DNA of 64,000 bases, from sequence record OR437326.1. One strand, 5' to 3'. Positions 3,902-5,819 of this stretch are shown here, in pieces; position 1 is the first letter of the stretch, and every line of letters begins with the position of its first letter. A program made the position numbers and the translations under genes. The notes below the pieces were generated by a model that was not told the origin of the DNA, searched no databases, and saw only the letters and a program-made list of their open reading frames with translations. The DNA comes from Escherichia phage iGC_PHA_EC001.

Positions 3902-3976
3902 GGCCCTGTAGCTCAATGGGAGAGCTGTCGGCTCATAACCGATAGGTAGCTGGATCGAAACCAGCCAGGGCCACCA
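3902..3976 (+). tRNA. tRNA anticodon CAT (Met or Ile-lysidine type)
   Basis: Manual cloverleaf: acceptor GGCCCTG/CAGGGCC, anticodon loop CTCATAA, T arm GCTGG-ATCGAAA-CCAGC, CCA encoded. Confidence 0.6.
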
Positions 3977-3978
3977 AA

Positions 3979-4053
3979 GTCTTTATGGTGTAATGGATAG
4001 CACAGGAGTCTTCTAAACTCTTAGTCAAGGTTCGATTCCTTGTAAAGACACCA
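3979..4053 (+). tRNA. tRNA-Arg (anticodon TCT)
   Basis: Manual cloverleaf: acceptor GTCTTTA/TAAAGAC, anticodon loop CTTCTAA, T loop TTCGATT, CCA encoded. Confidence 0.65.
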
Positions 4054-4249
4054 GAACATTTTAACATGAATTAGCTCAAGTGATTTGAACCCACTACTGA
4101 TCATGGTGGCAGAGAATGAGGCAAGTATGTCAGACATTATAAACAAAGGCCACGGTTATATTAGAAGACATAAATGCTCGAAGAGCACCGTTCGTGGAGA
4201 ACGGGGGTTGGTGGAGTCACCATTCATGGTAAAATGTTTTAAAAAACTA

Positions 4250-4279
4250 TTGACAACAAACATTATTTTATGTTAGATT
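4250..4279 (+). promoter_or_regulatory. sigma70-like promoter inside tRNA cluster (TTGACA-N18-TAGATT)
   Basis: Shares the extended motif AACTATTGACAA with promoters at 3663 and 5212; precedes tRNA at 4288. Confidence 0.45.
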
Positions 4280-4287
4280 ATAAGTAT

Positions 4288-4378
4288 GGAAGGGCAAATC
4301 GATGTGGCGACGAAAACGGTCTTGAAAACCGCCGAGCTTGAAAGAGCCTTGGGAGTTCGACTCTCCCTCCTTCCGCCA
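4288..4378 (+). tRNA. tRNA-Ser-like (anticodon TGA), class II
   Basis: Acceptor GGAAGGG/TCCTTCC, loop CTTGAAA, long variable arm, T arm GGGAG-TTCGACT-CTCCC, G73, CCA; D arm folds irregularly by hand. Confidence 0.5.
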
Positions 4379-4383
4379 GATTA

Positions 4384-4469
4384 GGTAGATTGGTGAAATG
4401 GTAGCCACGACAGTTTGCTAAACTGTAGTCGGAAACGGCGTGTAGGTTCGAGTCCTACATCTACCGCCA
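4384..4469 (+). tRNA. tRNA-Ser (anticodon GCT), class II
   Basis: Acceptor GGTAGAT/ATCTACC, anticodon stem ACAGT/ACTGT, loop TTGCTAA, long variable arm, G73, CCA. Confidence 0.6.
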
Positions 4470-4599
4470 AGTTCTTTTTAATGTAGCTTACTTTAGCAGA
4501 GTAAATCTTCGGCAAGTGGCGGTAACCACTTTACCGATACCTCATAGTTAGTGGTCTGAACACTGGCTATTTTAAAAAGAATTTAAATATTAGTATTTA

Positions 4600-4687
4600 G
4601 GTGAGTTAATTCCGTAGGGGTAGCGGGGCAGACTGTAAATCTGTTATCATTGCGATTCGGGTGGTTCGACTCCATCACTCACCACCA
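4600..4687 (+). tRNA. tRNA-Tyr (anticodon GTA), class II
   Basis: Acceptor GGTGAGT/ACTCACC, anticodon arm GCAGA-CTGTAAA-TCTGT matches bacterial tRNA-Tyr, A73, CCA. Confidence 0.6.
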
Positions 4688-4693
4688 AATTAA

Positions 4694-4779
4694 GATGAGT
4701 TGGCTGAATGGTTTAAGCGGCGGACTGTTAATCCGTGTTCGAAAGAACAATATAGGTTCGAATCCTATACTCATCGCCA
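4694..4779 (+). tRNA. class II (Ser-like) tRNA with anticodon loop reading GTT; identity unresolved
   Basis: Acceptor GATGAGT/ACTCATC, 3-bp D stem, anticodon stem GCGGA/TCCGT with loop CTGTTAA, 15-nt variable arm hairpin, T arm ATAGG-TTCGAAT-CCTAT, G73, CCA. Confidence 0.45.
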
Positions 4780-4868
4780 GAATTATGGACTTGTAGAGTT
4801 AAGGTAAACCCCAGTAGCCAAGAGGCTTCTGGAATTGCAGGTATCGAATCCTGCCGAGTCCCAGCTTT

Positions 4869-4943
4869 GCTCCTATAGTATAATGGCTATTACAACGGTT
4901 TTGTAATCCGTGGATCTCTGTTCGATTCAGAGTGGGAGCACCA
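4869..4943 (+). tRNA. tRNA-Thr (anticodon TGT)
   Basis: Acceptor GCTCCTA/TGGGAGC, loop TTTGTAA, T arm CTCTG-TTCGATT-CAGAG, CCA; one U-U mismatch closing anticodon stem. Confidence 0.5.
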
Positions 4944-5211
4944 ACACAACATTAAGGGCACTGTGATTGATCGTCGTATCCTGTGCACAAGGTCTGTTCG
5001 AAAGACAGTGTTCTTAGTATTGTGTTGATCACAAAAAGAGTCACCTGAAACTTGACCGGAGTAGGGTTGGATGGGGTAAAGAAGAAGCGGATTCTCCCAT
5101 CGACGTGATAGTTTTCCAGTGTTGCAAGCGACACCCAGGAGGTTAATCACAACCGAACGTAGGGCTAGTCACCCAAAGGGATACTCGTCACTGTCCCACT
5201 CAATAAAACTA

Positions 5212-5241
5212 TTGACAACCAATAGTAAAATGTAGTATAGT
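5212..5241 (+). promoter_or_regulatory. sigma70-like promoter inside tRNA cluster (TTGACA-N18-TATAGT)
   Basis: TTGACA at 5212-5217, TATAGT at 5236-5241; palindrome CTATTG...CAATAG overlaps the -35; precedes tRNA-Gly. Confidence 0.5.
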
Positions 5242-5252
5242 AAATATGTAGG

Positions 5253-5326
5253 GCGTTCTTGGTGTAGCGGTAGCATTCCGTCCTTCCAAGTCGGCGGCAC
5301 GAGTTCGATCCTCGTAGAACGCTCCA
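5253..5326 (+). tRNA. tRNA-Gly (anticodon TCC)
   Basis: Acceptor GCGTTCT/AGAACGC, loop CTTCCAA, T arm ACGAG-TTCGATC-CTCGT, CCA; overall resemblance to bacterial tRNA-Gly. Confidence 0.55.
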
Positions 5327-5424
5327 AATTATTTAATAAAGGGTTGCCAGAAAACTTTCTCTTTTACTCATGGTTTTCTCCTTCTCTCACACTTCTTCTG
5401 GTTGCCCTTCATTAAATGATTTAT

Positions 5425-5500
5425 TGGTTTGTAGTGTAGTCAGGTAGCACACGACACTTTGACTGTCGTAGGTTTGGTTCAAATCCAGACAGACCAGCCA
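5425..5500 (+). tRNA. tRNA-Gln (anticodon TTG)
   Basis: Acceptor TGGTTTG/CAGACCA, anticodon arm CGACA-CTTTGAC-TGTCG, T loop TTCAAAT, CCA. Confidence 0.6.
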
Positions 5501-5505
5501 TATAA

Positions 5506-5582
5506 CGGAATTTAGCTCAGTTTGGTAGAGCATACGCTTTGGGAGCGTAGGGTCGCAGGTTCGAATCCTGCAATTCCGACCA
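5506..5582 (+). tRNA. tRNA-Pro (anticodon TGG)
   Basis: Acceptor CGGAATT/AATTCCG, anticodon arm TACGC-TTTGGGA-GCGTA, T arm GCAGG-TTCGAAT-CCTGC, CCA. Confidence 0.7.
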
Positions 5583-5588
5583 ATTTAA

Positions 5589-5662
5589 TGTTTCGTAGTT
5601 CAATGGTAGAACCCACGACTGATAATCGTGAGATACAAGTTCGATTCTTGTCGAAACAACCA
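5589..5662 (+). tRNA. tRNA-Ile (anticodon GAT)
   Basis: Acceptor TGTTTCG/CGAAACA, D stem GTTC/GAAC, anticodon arm CACGA-CTGATAA-TCGTG, T arm ACAAG-TTCGATT-CTTGT, CCA. Confidence 0.7.
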
Positions 5663-5737
5663 GTTTCCCGTTAGACTTACAGGATAAGAGTTCCACAACT
5701 TATTGTGATGCTGGTTCGAATCCAGCACGGGATACCT
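5663..5737 (+). ncRNA. tRNA-like element without a canonical anticodon loop (possible pseudo-tRNA)
   Basis: Good T arm GCTGG-TTCGAAT-CCAGC and 6/7-bp acceptor pairing, but the anticodon-arm region folds as 5-bp stem CACAA/TTGTG with only a 4-nt loop; no CCA. Confidence 0.3.
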
Positions 5738-5740
5738 AAT

Positions 5741-5819
5741 AGCGGGATAGAGGAGTCTGGTCGTCCTCGCCAGTTTCATATGCTGGAGATCATCGGTTCA
5801 AATCCGATTCCCGCCTCCA
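5741..5819 (+). tRNA. second tRNA with anticodon CAT (Met/fMet or Ile-lysidine type)
   Basis: Acceptor AGCGGGA/TCCCGCC with 1-72 mismatch, D stem GAGG/CCTC, anticodon arm CCAGT-TTCATAT-GCTGG, T arm ATCGG-TTCAAAT-CCGAT, CCA. Confidence 0.55.

Follow-up and report, generated by a model that had tools for sequence, protein, structure and literature searches.

The transfer RNA (tRNA) regions of the coliphages T5 and T4 hold, among their tRNA genes, non-tRNA residents that have, to our knowledge, remained without a known function since the 1970s and have no entry in Rfam. The T5 reference record (NC_005859) intersperses promoters and 25 tRNAs with eight misc_RNAs that bear the label “stable RNA with unknown functions” or “tRNA-like”; the stable RNAs of this phage are RNAI, RNAIII, RNAIV, RNA1, RNA2, RNA2H, RNA3, and RNAX. 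In T4, rnaC and rnaD (species 1 and species 2) are small stable RNAs at the end of the tRNA cluster, where they follow tRNA-Arg in the same orientation. This article focuses on the tRNA array of Escherichia phage iGC_PHA_EC001 (sequence record OR437326.1), the tRNA genes of which lie between positions 3902 and 5819 of a stretch of 64,000 nucleotides (nt), hereafter the window. The spacers between these tRNA genes are shown to be autonomous structured RNA modules of the plus strand, several of which are conserved with compensatory changes across phage subfamilies and even families. Altogether, conserved structured RNAs, of which there are at least five, and two tRNA-like elements take up about 40% of the array.

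Phage tRNA arrays are of renewed interest as single phage tRNAs neutralize tRNA-cleaving defenses, T5 tRNA-Lys countering PARIS and T5 tRNA-Tyr countering the PtuAB toxin of retron Eco7 (PMC11464382). Like the window, T5 combines sigma-70 promoters, tRNAs, and stable RNAs of 70–720 nt, some of them tRNA-like, on one strand. T5 RNA2H resembles the leader RNA of the array (RNA a, below) in its size of ~170–200 nt, in adjoining a promoter, in being followed by tRNAs and, by inspection, in its complementary ends. However, when all T5 stable RNAs were compared with the array by blastn, RNA3 alone found a match and spacers a–f were otherwise without similarity, and the covariance model of RNA b gave nothing convincing in the T5 region. 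Inspection suggests a tRNA origin for both T4 RNAs, rnaC having a canonical T arm and rnaD a terminal CCA, and in this they resemble RNA b and the two tRNA-like elements of the array; unlike rnaC and rnaD, RNA b has lost its T loop and carries an insertion of ~105 nt at the D-loop position. Comparison of rnaC and rnaD with the array by blastn returned generic T-arm matches only, and no internal promoters are annotated in the inspected stretch of the T4 cluster. The large RNAs ROOL and GOLLD and the bacterial Y-RNA-like YrlA, the last of which has a tRNA-like module, are structured non-coding RNAs of phage genomes, at best partly understood in function, that often stand beside tRNAs. The spacers differ from them in having no match at the Rfam threshold and in being 95–260 nt long with different folds, and the sole hit to YrlA, at 24 bits (threshold, 69), merely spans two tRNAs. 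The rV5-, phi92-, and phAPEC8-like phages (Vequintavirinae and Stephanstirmvirinae) have the same gene array annotated, but, in the records inspected, not its spacers, and the passages on tRNAs and promoters in the rV5 paper mention no structured RNAs (PMC3606486).

By analogy, the spacers are best seen as further members of the “stable RNA” class of the T4 and T5 tRNA regions, a class known since earlier but unexplained in function. As a tRNA array, the locus was known before and is nothing unusual in phAPEC8-like phages; what is new are RNA b and RNA c, two well-supported families that are unannotated in the inspected records, and the homologue of T5 RNA3. A catalog of ~10,000 candidate viral structured RNAs exists (PMC10690425); the literature found on these RNAs consists of such general catalogs, the contents of this one not having been checked for them, and of background on T5 and T4.

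Conserved structured RNAs between the tRNA genes

A first-pass annotation, made from the sequence alone, had listed three gaps in the array (4054–4288, 4470–4600, and 4944–5250) that held hairpins but no recognizable tRNA, and had guessed that they may contain degenerate tRNAs or small RNAs. No tRNA could be called in any of the three, all of which fold better than shuffled sequences (z = -3.3 to -3.8), and the guess proved apt on both counts, since 4054–4243 has a tRNA-derived core and 4469–4585 and 4944–5205 are conserved structured RNAs of non-tRNA type. Beyond these gaps, further elements were found at 3702–3899, 5327–5421, and 5820–5905, along with tRNA-like sequences at 4787–4862 and 5664–5737. 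The elements between and around the tRNA genes are the following:

3702–3899, plus strand: spacer RNA a, a leader of ~200 nt with a closing stem of ~24 base pairs (bp), ending 2 nt before the first tRNA (fold and pair conservation)
4054–4243, plus strand: spacer RNA b, ~190 nt, with a tRNA-derived core (homologues, covariation, and covariance model)
4469–4585, plus strand: spacer RNA c, a four-way junction of ~117 nt with a 13-bp closing stem and three hairpins (homologues and covariance model R1)
4787–4862, plus strand: tRNA-like element 1, the homologue of T5 RNA3 (“tRNA-???” in relaxed ARAGORN; blastn)
4944–5205, plus strand: spacer RNA d, with a hairpin of ~20 bp at 4944–5025, conserved flanks, and a hypervariable hairpin at ~5110–5150
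5327–5421, plus strand: spacer RNA e, with a closing stem of ~24 bp and a conserved CU-rich loop of ~40 nt (fold z = -5.2)
5664–5737, plus strand: tRNA-like element 2 (“tRNA-???” with (tcca) in relaxed ARAGORN)
5820–5905, plus strand: spacer f, a conserved stretch of ~85 nt after the last tRNA (conservation in phi92)

The placement of the spacers is regular. Each closing stem starts 0–1 nt past the preceding CCA. On the downstream side, 2–14 nt separate spacers a, c, and e from the tRNA that follows, while b and d stop short of a promoter and f of the terminator. All of them stand among plus-strand tRNAs downstream of the promoters P1–P3 and fall in the same predicted transcription units. The fold z-scores of spacers a–e range from -3.3 to -5.3, and the predicted closing stems of RNA a (~24 bp), RNA e (~24 bp; 23 bp in its phi92 counterpart), and the RNA d hairpin (~20 bp) reach the size suited to RNase III (~20 bp or more of near-continuous double-stranded RNA, as in rRNA operons and the T4 tRNA precursor). 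No spacer matches Rfam 15 at the gathering threshold, and hits up to an E-value of 10 are at chance level, e.g., RT-6 on the minus strand, or RyhB and MicA over the terminator. Loose motif scans of IMG/VR and metagenomes gave mostly chance hits, and nhmmer filtering or stricter patterns left only the same phage lineages.

RNA b begins at the base directly after the CCA of tRNA-Arg, and the fold of 4054–4245 is well below that of shuffles (z = -3.8). Homologues of ~70% identity and near full length occur within the tRNA clusters of Seunavirus (PVP-SE1, GAP31, SSE121, 4MG, and others) and Stephanstirmvirinae phages, further carriers among the latter being phiWec181 and Klebsiella phage 05F01. 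Scans of IMG/VR and metagenomes for RNA b returned only these same lineages, and its covariance model detected no homologue at the T5, T4, phi92, and Vequintavirus loci, where it gave weak tRNA-Pro hits only. In the 46-pair structure, 96.5% of the alignment cells are paired, against 36–54% with slid partners, and 21 of the 46 pairs are compensatory, against 4–8 when slid; none of 500 shuffles reached the observed values. Three motifs are unpaired and invariant: GAGAAUGAG, GGUNGGUGGAGUCACC, and ACUGAUCAU, the last as a hairpin loop of 9 nt. RNA b is not protein-coding, since it has no conserved frame: as read from the alignment of Phapecoctavirus with Seunavirus, indels move the GGTGGAGTCACC frame relative to GAGAATGAG.

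The core of RNA b follows the order of a tRNA, with an acceptor-like stem, UA-GCUC-A-R, the ~105-nt insertion, GAGC, a 5-bp stem with the 7-nt loop CG(U/C)GGAG, a variable-loop-like RGGUY, a 4-bp mini T hairpin, and the 3′ strand of the acceptor-like stem. As in the Levitt pair of a tRNA, the counterparts of positions 15 and 48 change together (A:U to G:C), in a single evolutionary event. The covariance model makes weak full-length hits on the tRNA-Pro genes of four phages, T4 included, in which it aligns the core segments, and the core without its insertion scores 41–48 against 160 phage tRNAs (shuffles, 27 ± 3; none of 200 as high). To judge from these similarities, the core is derived from a tRNA. 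A specific origin from tRNA-Pro was rejected, as Pro came out on top in three of five queries and Ile, Thr, and Arg score alike. RNA b is not a canonical tRNA, since it has G at position 33, a T loop of 4 nt, and the long insertion, and it falls below every Rfam threshold. The corresponding search against the 160 phage tRNAs gave chance-level local similarity for spacers a, c, d, and e, and tRNA ancestry was discarded for them.

Some side observations concern RNA b. Its invariant loop contains the palindrome UGAUCA (4098–4103), and the conserved hairpin loop of RNA d contains UGAUCG (4968–4973); these loops could pair with themselves or with each other. Avoidance of GATC (Dam) was rejected as the cause of the invariant UGAUCA, as GATC is not avoided in the window (271 observed, 229 expected). 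In SSE121, an HNH endonuclease gene lies directly downstream of the RNA b homologue (positions 516–1010 of the extract), and PVP-SE1 has ~480 extra bases (3189–3671 of its extract) at the junction matching the HNH site of SSE121, which suggests homing-endonuclease traffic at the downstream junction of RNA b, by analogy with T4 (segB) and T5 (heg genes).

RNA c starts at the CCA of tRNA-Ser-GCT and ends 14 nt before tRNA-Tyr, and the fold of 4470–4599 also surpasses shuffles (z = -3.3). It is carried by Phapecoctavirus, Justusliebigvirus (phi92), Vequintavirus, and several T5-like phages (Tennessee, phiLLS, and Eos), always directly upstream of tRNA-Tyr or of Lys-Tyr, and is absent from T5 itself. 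Because its G.U pairs are conserved, the covariance model R1 is strand-specific, with a score of 136 bits for the plus strand as opposed to 35 for the minus strand. Among 12 sequences, 98.5% of the cells are paired and 7 pairs are compensatory, as opposed to 0–1 when slid. The loops of two hairpins are hypervariable, one hairpin of the Klebsiella phage 05F01 copy has apparently, by inspection, been swapped for an unrelated stem, and phi92-like copies contain an internal duplication or insertion. Together with tRNA-Tyr (4469–4687), RNA c is 98–100% identical to Vequintavirus 10C2 (2504–2722; 98% for RNA c and 100% for tRNA-Tyr) and ~80% identical to T5-like siphoviruses; this Tyr module looks to have been exchanged recently between phage families. 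Among close Phapecoctavirus relatives, the spacer at 4470–4599 falls into two allelic classes (98–99% and ~89% identical), and that at 4944–5205 is 97% identical in ~5 records and ~84% in most. These classes vary while the flanking tRNAs are near-identical, so the spacers are recombination mosaics.

A rival idea is that the spacers, especially RNA c and the RNA d hairpin, are small mobile DNA elements, similar to miniature inverted-repeat transposable elements, that insert beside tRNA genes, which would account for their occurrence in unrelated phages. The element ends are complementary, RNA c is patchy in distribution (in some T5-like phages, not in T5), its copy in a Vequintavirus is nearly identical, and the phi92-like copies bear the duplication or insertion just mentioned. 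However, the orientation is always that of the tRNAs, RNA c is strand-specific, and no target-site duplications or transposase were seen; copies at non-tRNA sites, in both orientations and with target duplications, were not found in the phage, IMG/VR, and metagenome scans. Furthermore, the element moves with its adjacent tRNA, so recombination of whole tRNA modules suffices, and we consider transposition very unlikely.

RNA a, the fold of which has a minimum free energy of -76.9 kcal/mol (z = -5.3), was found in Phapecoctavirus-type phages only. In comparison with the phiWec181 copy (80% identical), 8 of its 66 predicted pairs are compensatory and none is broken. In RNA d, the 5′ hairpin (4944–5030 tested) has z = -3.4, and a homologue lies 125 nt upstream of a tRNA-Arg/Met pair in an unrelated 46-kb Klebsiella siphovirus, where inspection reveals compensatory changes. 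The segment at ~5110–5150 is wholly different in the window, ASO2A, and phiWec181, and in each of them a hairpin was read by inspection. Spacer f is 90% identical in phi92, where it directly follows the last tRNA; its fold is weak (z = -1.9), its similarity to tRNAs marginal, and no covariation was found in it.

In RNA e, the stem has been replaced and the loop kept: phi92 has a different stem of 23 bp (z = -4.1), and the loop is 92% identical. On the opposite strand, the loop reads GAAGGAGAAAACCATGAG, a perfect Shine-Dalgarno site and an ATG; the loop may be either a plus-strand loop directed against ribosome-binding sites (RBS) or a minus-strand micro-gene. An antisense target for the loop was sought in the window and rejected, the other match, at a gene start near 47650, having 3 mismatches and being unconvincing. 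On the minus strand at 5334–5384, GAAGGAGAAAACC-ATG is followed by an open reading frame (ORF) of 12 codons (MSKRESFLATLY), the phi92 counterpart of which, by inspection, has 8 codons and offsetting indels. This micro-ORF, the coding sequences (CDSs) that some records annotate over the gaps, and a plus-strand ORF of 63 amino acids at 4085–4276 are what speaks for the gaps encoding small proteins. Set against this are the unconserved frame of RNA b, the different lengths of the micro-product (12 amino acids in the window, 8 in phi92), the substitutions in RNA b and RNA c, which follow base pairs and not codons, the many annotated CDSs that overlap tRNAs or lie on the opposite strand, and the small ORFs near the array, which have no Pfam hits; coding by the gaps is thus highly improbable.

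Neither of the two tRNA-like elements is a canonical tRNA, and both score below every Rfam threshold. The first (4787–4862) lacks a D stem; its acceptor stem is 7 bp long, and its “anticodon” and T-like loops have 6 and 8 nt, respectively. By blastn, it is 74% identical to T5 RNA3 over 65/73 nt (E = 1e-4), with the common block GTAGAGTTAAG(G)TAAACC. Its position also agrees: in the T5 record, tRNA-Asn ends at 33952 and RNA3 spans 33949–33877, in the window tRNA-Asn ends at 4779 and the element starts at 4787, and in phi92 an RNA3-like element again follows tRNA-Asn. An acceptor-like stem, a central hairpin, and a T-like hairpin (loop of 8 nt) are common to the single-sequence folds of the element and of T5 RNA3. 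Covariation of the acceptor and T-like stems was seen among the window, phi92, and T5, compensatory changes affecting 8 of 14 pairs in an alignment that included one unrelated sequence. A 3′-terminal ...ACCA is encoded in T5 RNA3; the window copy, reading ...CGAGTCCCAGC, lacks a complete CCA beyond its 7-bp stem. By sequence, position, and fold, the element is a homologue of T5 RNA3. In the second element (5664–5737), the T arm and acceptor stem are good (one U.U mismatch in the latter), the “anticodon” loop is oversized at 8–10 nt, and CCA is missing. The 3′ half of this element is similar to T4 tRNA-Arg, and its local similarity score to real tRNAs is 50 (shuffles, 27.7 ± 3); it is a degenerate tRNA.

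Such elements raise the question whether the gaps are debris, i.e., decaying tRNA genes or leftovers of rearrangement or homing endonucleases, in which structure is incidental. Both elements and the core of RNA b are recognizably tRNA-derived yet are not canonical tRNAs, homing endonucleases are known from phage tRNA regions (segB in T4, heg in T5, and the HNH gene after RNA b in SSE121), and the spacers are mosaic between close relatives. Decay would hardly account for the retention of 96–98% of the pairs through compensatory substitutions, for invariant loops of 9–37 nt kept across subfamilies, or for an exact placement relative to tRNA ends that is kept from T5-like siphoviruses to rV5-like myoviruses. 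We therefore regard debris as an unlikely origin of the gaps.

tRNA genes, promoters, and predicted transcription units

Twelve tRNA genes, all on the plus strand and all with a CCA that can be read from the sequence, lie within 3902–5819. ARAGORN with default settings reported 10 of them. The Rfam model RF00005 recovered the same 10 (50–72 bits; E-values of 1e-7 to 8e-14) plus 4600–4684 at 39 bits, 11 loci passing the gathering threshold of 29 bits at 39–72 bits. The genes, with the predicted promoters and terminator, are as follows:

3658–3692, plus strand: promoter P1, AACTATTGACA, 18-nt spacer, and TG-extended TAGGAT (10/12 consensus matches)
3902–3976, plus strand: tRNA with anticodon CAT, Met according to ARAGORN and probably Ile2 (ARAGORN; RF00005, 64.5 bits)
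3979–4053, plus strand: tRNA-Arg (TCT) (ARAGORN; RF00005, 66.3 bits)
4245–4279, plus strand: promoter P2, AACTATTGACA, 18-nt spacer, and TG-extended TAGATT (TTGACA-18-TAGATT at 4250–4279, 10/12)
4289–4378, plus strand: tRNA-Ser (TGA), class II with a 3-bp D stem (relaxed ARAGORN; RF01852, 35.7 bits)
4384–4469, plus strand: tRNA-Ser (GCT) (ARAGORN; RF00005, 56 bits)
4600–4687, plus strand: tRNA-Tyr (GTA), with an irregular D arm (RF00005, 39 bits; relaxed ARAGORN)
4694–4779, plus strand: tRNA-Asn (GTT) (ARAGORN; RF00005, 62.1 bits)
4869–4943, plus strand: tRNA-Thr (TGT) (ARAGORN; RF00005, 59.5 bits)
5207–5241, plus strand: promoter P3, AACTATTGACA, 18-nt spacer, and TATAGT (TTGACA-18-TATAGT at 5212–5241, 11/12)
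5253–5326, plus strand: tRNA-Gly (TCC) (ARAGORN; RF00005, 56.1 bits)
5425–5500, plus strand: tRNA-Gln (TTG) (ARAGORN; RF00005, 55 bits)
5506–5582, plus strand: tRNA-Pro (TGG) (ARAGORN; RF00005, 70.8 bits)
5589–5662, plus strand: tRNA-Ile (GAT) (ARAGORN; RF00005, 72.2 bits)
5741–5819, plus strand: tRNA-Met (CAT), with a long D loop and an A1.C72 mismatch (ARAGORN; RF00005, 50 bits)
5935–5953, plus strand: intrinsic terminator closing the array, a 7-bp GC-rich stem followed by TTTTT (also a terminator in the ASO2A annotation)

The first-pass annotation had folded by hand 11 tRNAs with the anticodons CAT (twice), TCT, TGA, GCT, GTA, TGT, TCC, TTG, TGG, and GAT. All of these were recovered at matching coordinates, ARAGORN and Rfam giving no substantial difference in boundaries or isotypes, which it had named as the outcome that would speak against it. 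It had added one tRNA of unclear identity; the twelfth tRNA is tRNA-Asn-GTT at 4694–4779 (62 bits), probably the one that was meant. The irregular D arms that it had remarked on are real, Tyr-GTA and Ser-TGA both being missed by ARAGORN under default settings, and one GenBank record marks Tyr-GTA and the final Met-CAT as “Pseudo.” Ser-TGA was found by relaxed ARAGORN only, the tRNA-Sec model RF01852 giving it 35.7 bits (below its threshold of 47), and was called tRNA-Ser-TGA by tRNAscan-SE in phage ASO2A (99% identical). The tRNA-Tyr of the array shares 84% identity with its T5 counterpart and 100% with that of Vequintavirus 10C2. The first CAT tRNA was called Ile-CAT by tRNAscan-SE in ASO2A, and its acceptor stem starts with GGCCC, which gives the TilS determinants C4-G69 and C5-G68, as in E. 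coli ileX; it is probably tRNA-Ile2. Between tRNA-Gln and tRNA-Pro, many relatives have an extra insert of ~90 nt (2409–2501 of the ASO2A extract and 4500–4592 of the phiWec181 extract) without counterpart in the window, which folds no better than shuffles (z = +0.45). One relative's record annotates a second tRNA-Pro near this insert.

The near-consensus promoters that had been noted inside the cluster at 4250 and 5212 were found again by a sigma-70 consensus scan, which added a third, P1, with hexamers spanning 3663–3692. Promoter-like sites overall are not above chance (5, against 5.9 in shuffles), but the exact 11-mer AACTATTGACA is common to these three promoters and has no other copy in the 64-kb window, occurring only at 3658, 4245, and 5207. 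No terminator was found within the array before 5935, and a fourth promoter, for the next gene, follows the terminator at 5935–5953. Three promoters with a common motif and one terminator therefore define three tandem transcription units. For tRNA-Ser-TGA and tRNA-Gly, the predicted start of transcription lies ~2–5 nt ahead of the gene; for the first unit, it coincides with the first bases of the 200-nt leader. The first unit would comprise P1, the leader RNA a, tRNA-Ile2/Met, tRNA-Arg, and RNA b. The second would run from P2 through Ser, Ser, RNA c, Tyr, Asn, the RNA3-like element, and Thr to RNA d, and the third from P3 through Gly, RNA e, Gln, Pro, Ile, tRNA-like element 2, Met, and RNA f to the terminator.

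Processing and possible roles of the spacer RNAs

The explanation that fits best, and in which we place moderate confidence, is that of a phage tRNA array in three units, the spacers of which are released as discrete small RNAs with a mainly cis role. Each unit would be transcribed as one precursor, in which RNase P would cut the 5′ ends of the tRNAs, RNase E and 3′ exonucleases would trim the CCA ends, and RNase III would probably cut the 20–24-bp closing stems of RNAs a, d, and e. In the E. coli model, RNase E cuts 1–3 nt after CCA and RNase P then acts (PMC2190699), and RNase III takes part in the maturation of T4 tRNAs (PMC4810235). The spacers would thereby be freed as discrete small RNAs, like T4 rnaC and rnaD and the stable RNAs of T5, and their first role would be in cis, to allow the independent folding of neighboring tRNAs and to provide defined processing sites. 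The invariant loops of RNAs b and e suggest that some spacers have additionally gained sequence-specific functions in trans.

As for the tRNAs, they would decode the A/U-ending codons over-used by this phage of 40% GC content. Relative to E. coli, the codons ACA (4.5-fold), AGA (3.5-fold), ATA and GGA (2.6-fold each), CCA (1.8-fold), and CAA (1.5-fold) are used in excess. In the passage of the rV5 genome paper that deals with them, tRNAs are likewise accounted for by codon usage (PMC3606486). Comparison with codon usage, a check that the first-pass annotation had proposed, thus explains part of the tRNA set and leaves out Ile-GAT, Ser-GCT, Tyr, and Met. Some tRNAs, among them the Tyr module common to T5, probably replace host tRNAs destroyed by defense nucleases, by analogy with T5.

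Several points weigh against an array of processed precursors with spacers acting mainly in cis. Transcript ends, stability of the RNAs, and cleavage by RNase III are predictions. At 13 bp, the stem that closes RNA c falls short of what RNase III requires, and the predicted closing stem of RNA b (10 + 5 bp) is borderline. The covariation of RNA b rests on 3–4 independent lineages and that of RNA a on 2 sequences, and the alignment of RNA c was fitted to its covariance model. A purely cis scaffold leaves unexplained the unpaired invariant motifs ACUGAUCAU and GAGAAUGAG of RNA b and the conserved 37-nt loop of RNA e, as codon compensation does the tRNAs Ile-GAT, Ser-GCT, Met, and Tyr, the cognate codons of which are not enriched. 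Finally, a T5 mutant with a deletion in the tRNA gene region, which has probably lost several stable RNAs, is viable (PMC11464382), and such RNAs are therefore dispensable in the laboratory.

The invariant motifs invite the opposite view, that the spacers act mainly in trans, as tRNA mimics or decoys for defense nucleases or tRNA-binding proteins, or as antisense or anti-RBS regulators, co-transcription with tRNAs being a mere means of expression. In favor of it, the single-stranded motifs of RNA b are invariant at ~70% overall identity while the surrounding stems covary, RNA b retains a tRNA-like core down to the Levitt-type 15:48 covariation, RNA e has kept its loop with a replaced stem, and the modules have spread between unrelated phage families along with tRNAs known to counter defense. 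However, the only other anti-RBS near-match in the window has 3 mismatches, the hypervariable loops of RNA c argue against sequence-specific recognition there, and the T5 deletion mutant is viable. We hold a mainly trans-acting role to be possible, at perhaps one chance in several. A narrower and more doubtful suggestion is that the array is also an RNA-based counter-defense locus, in which the conserved spacers, above all RNA b with its invariant palindromic loop and the RNA c module that moves along with tRNA-Tyr, would as tRNA mimics or decoys bind or misdirect host factors and so complement the neighboring nuclease-resistant phage tRNAs; the candidate targets, equally speculative, would be PtuAB of retron Eco7, AriB of PARIS, PrrC- or RloC-type nucleases, and tRNA-processing factors.

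No new mechanism is revealed; the importance of these RNAs would rise sharply if any spacer does act in trans, e.g., as a defense decoy. Bounded RNA targets are now defined in well-studied coliphages, and spurious “hypothetical protein” annotations could be corrected.

Genomic setting and earlier annotation of the array

Over its full length (2.4 kb), the region 3600–6000 is 97–98% identical to dozens of Escherichia Phapecoctavirus records, and the array accordingly belongs to a coliphage of the genus Phapecoctavirus (phAPEC8 group, Stephanstirmvirinae), the genomes of which are ~150 kb. Downstream of the array and on the same strand lie the genes for the large terminase (7322–9397) and the portal protein (9499–11064). 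Upstream, a block of small minus-strand ORFs occupies 160–2444, and small plus-strand ORFs without Pfam matches lie between this block and the array (2924–3655). The array is therefore placed between a small-ORF block and the structural (terminase and portal) module.

Dozens of related records (96–98% identical) annotate 10–13 tRNAs at the same array. In those inspected, the spacers are either unannotated or covered by short “hypothetical protein” CDSs that often overlap tRNA genes. The records of WPEC4, 05F01, and NINP13076 have such CDSs over tRNAs and structured spacers, sometimes on the opposite strand; these CDSs are probably gene-caller artifacts. Spacer matches at 80–99% identity were also found in Campylobacter phages B15 and C3, Acinetobacter phage ABPW7, and Pseudomonas phage PsgM04F, the genomes of which are about the size of those of phAPEC8- or phi92-type coliphages, so that the host labels may be wrong or the samples contaminated.

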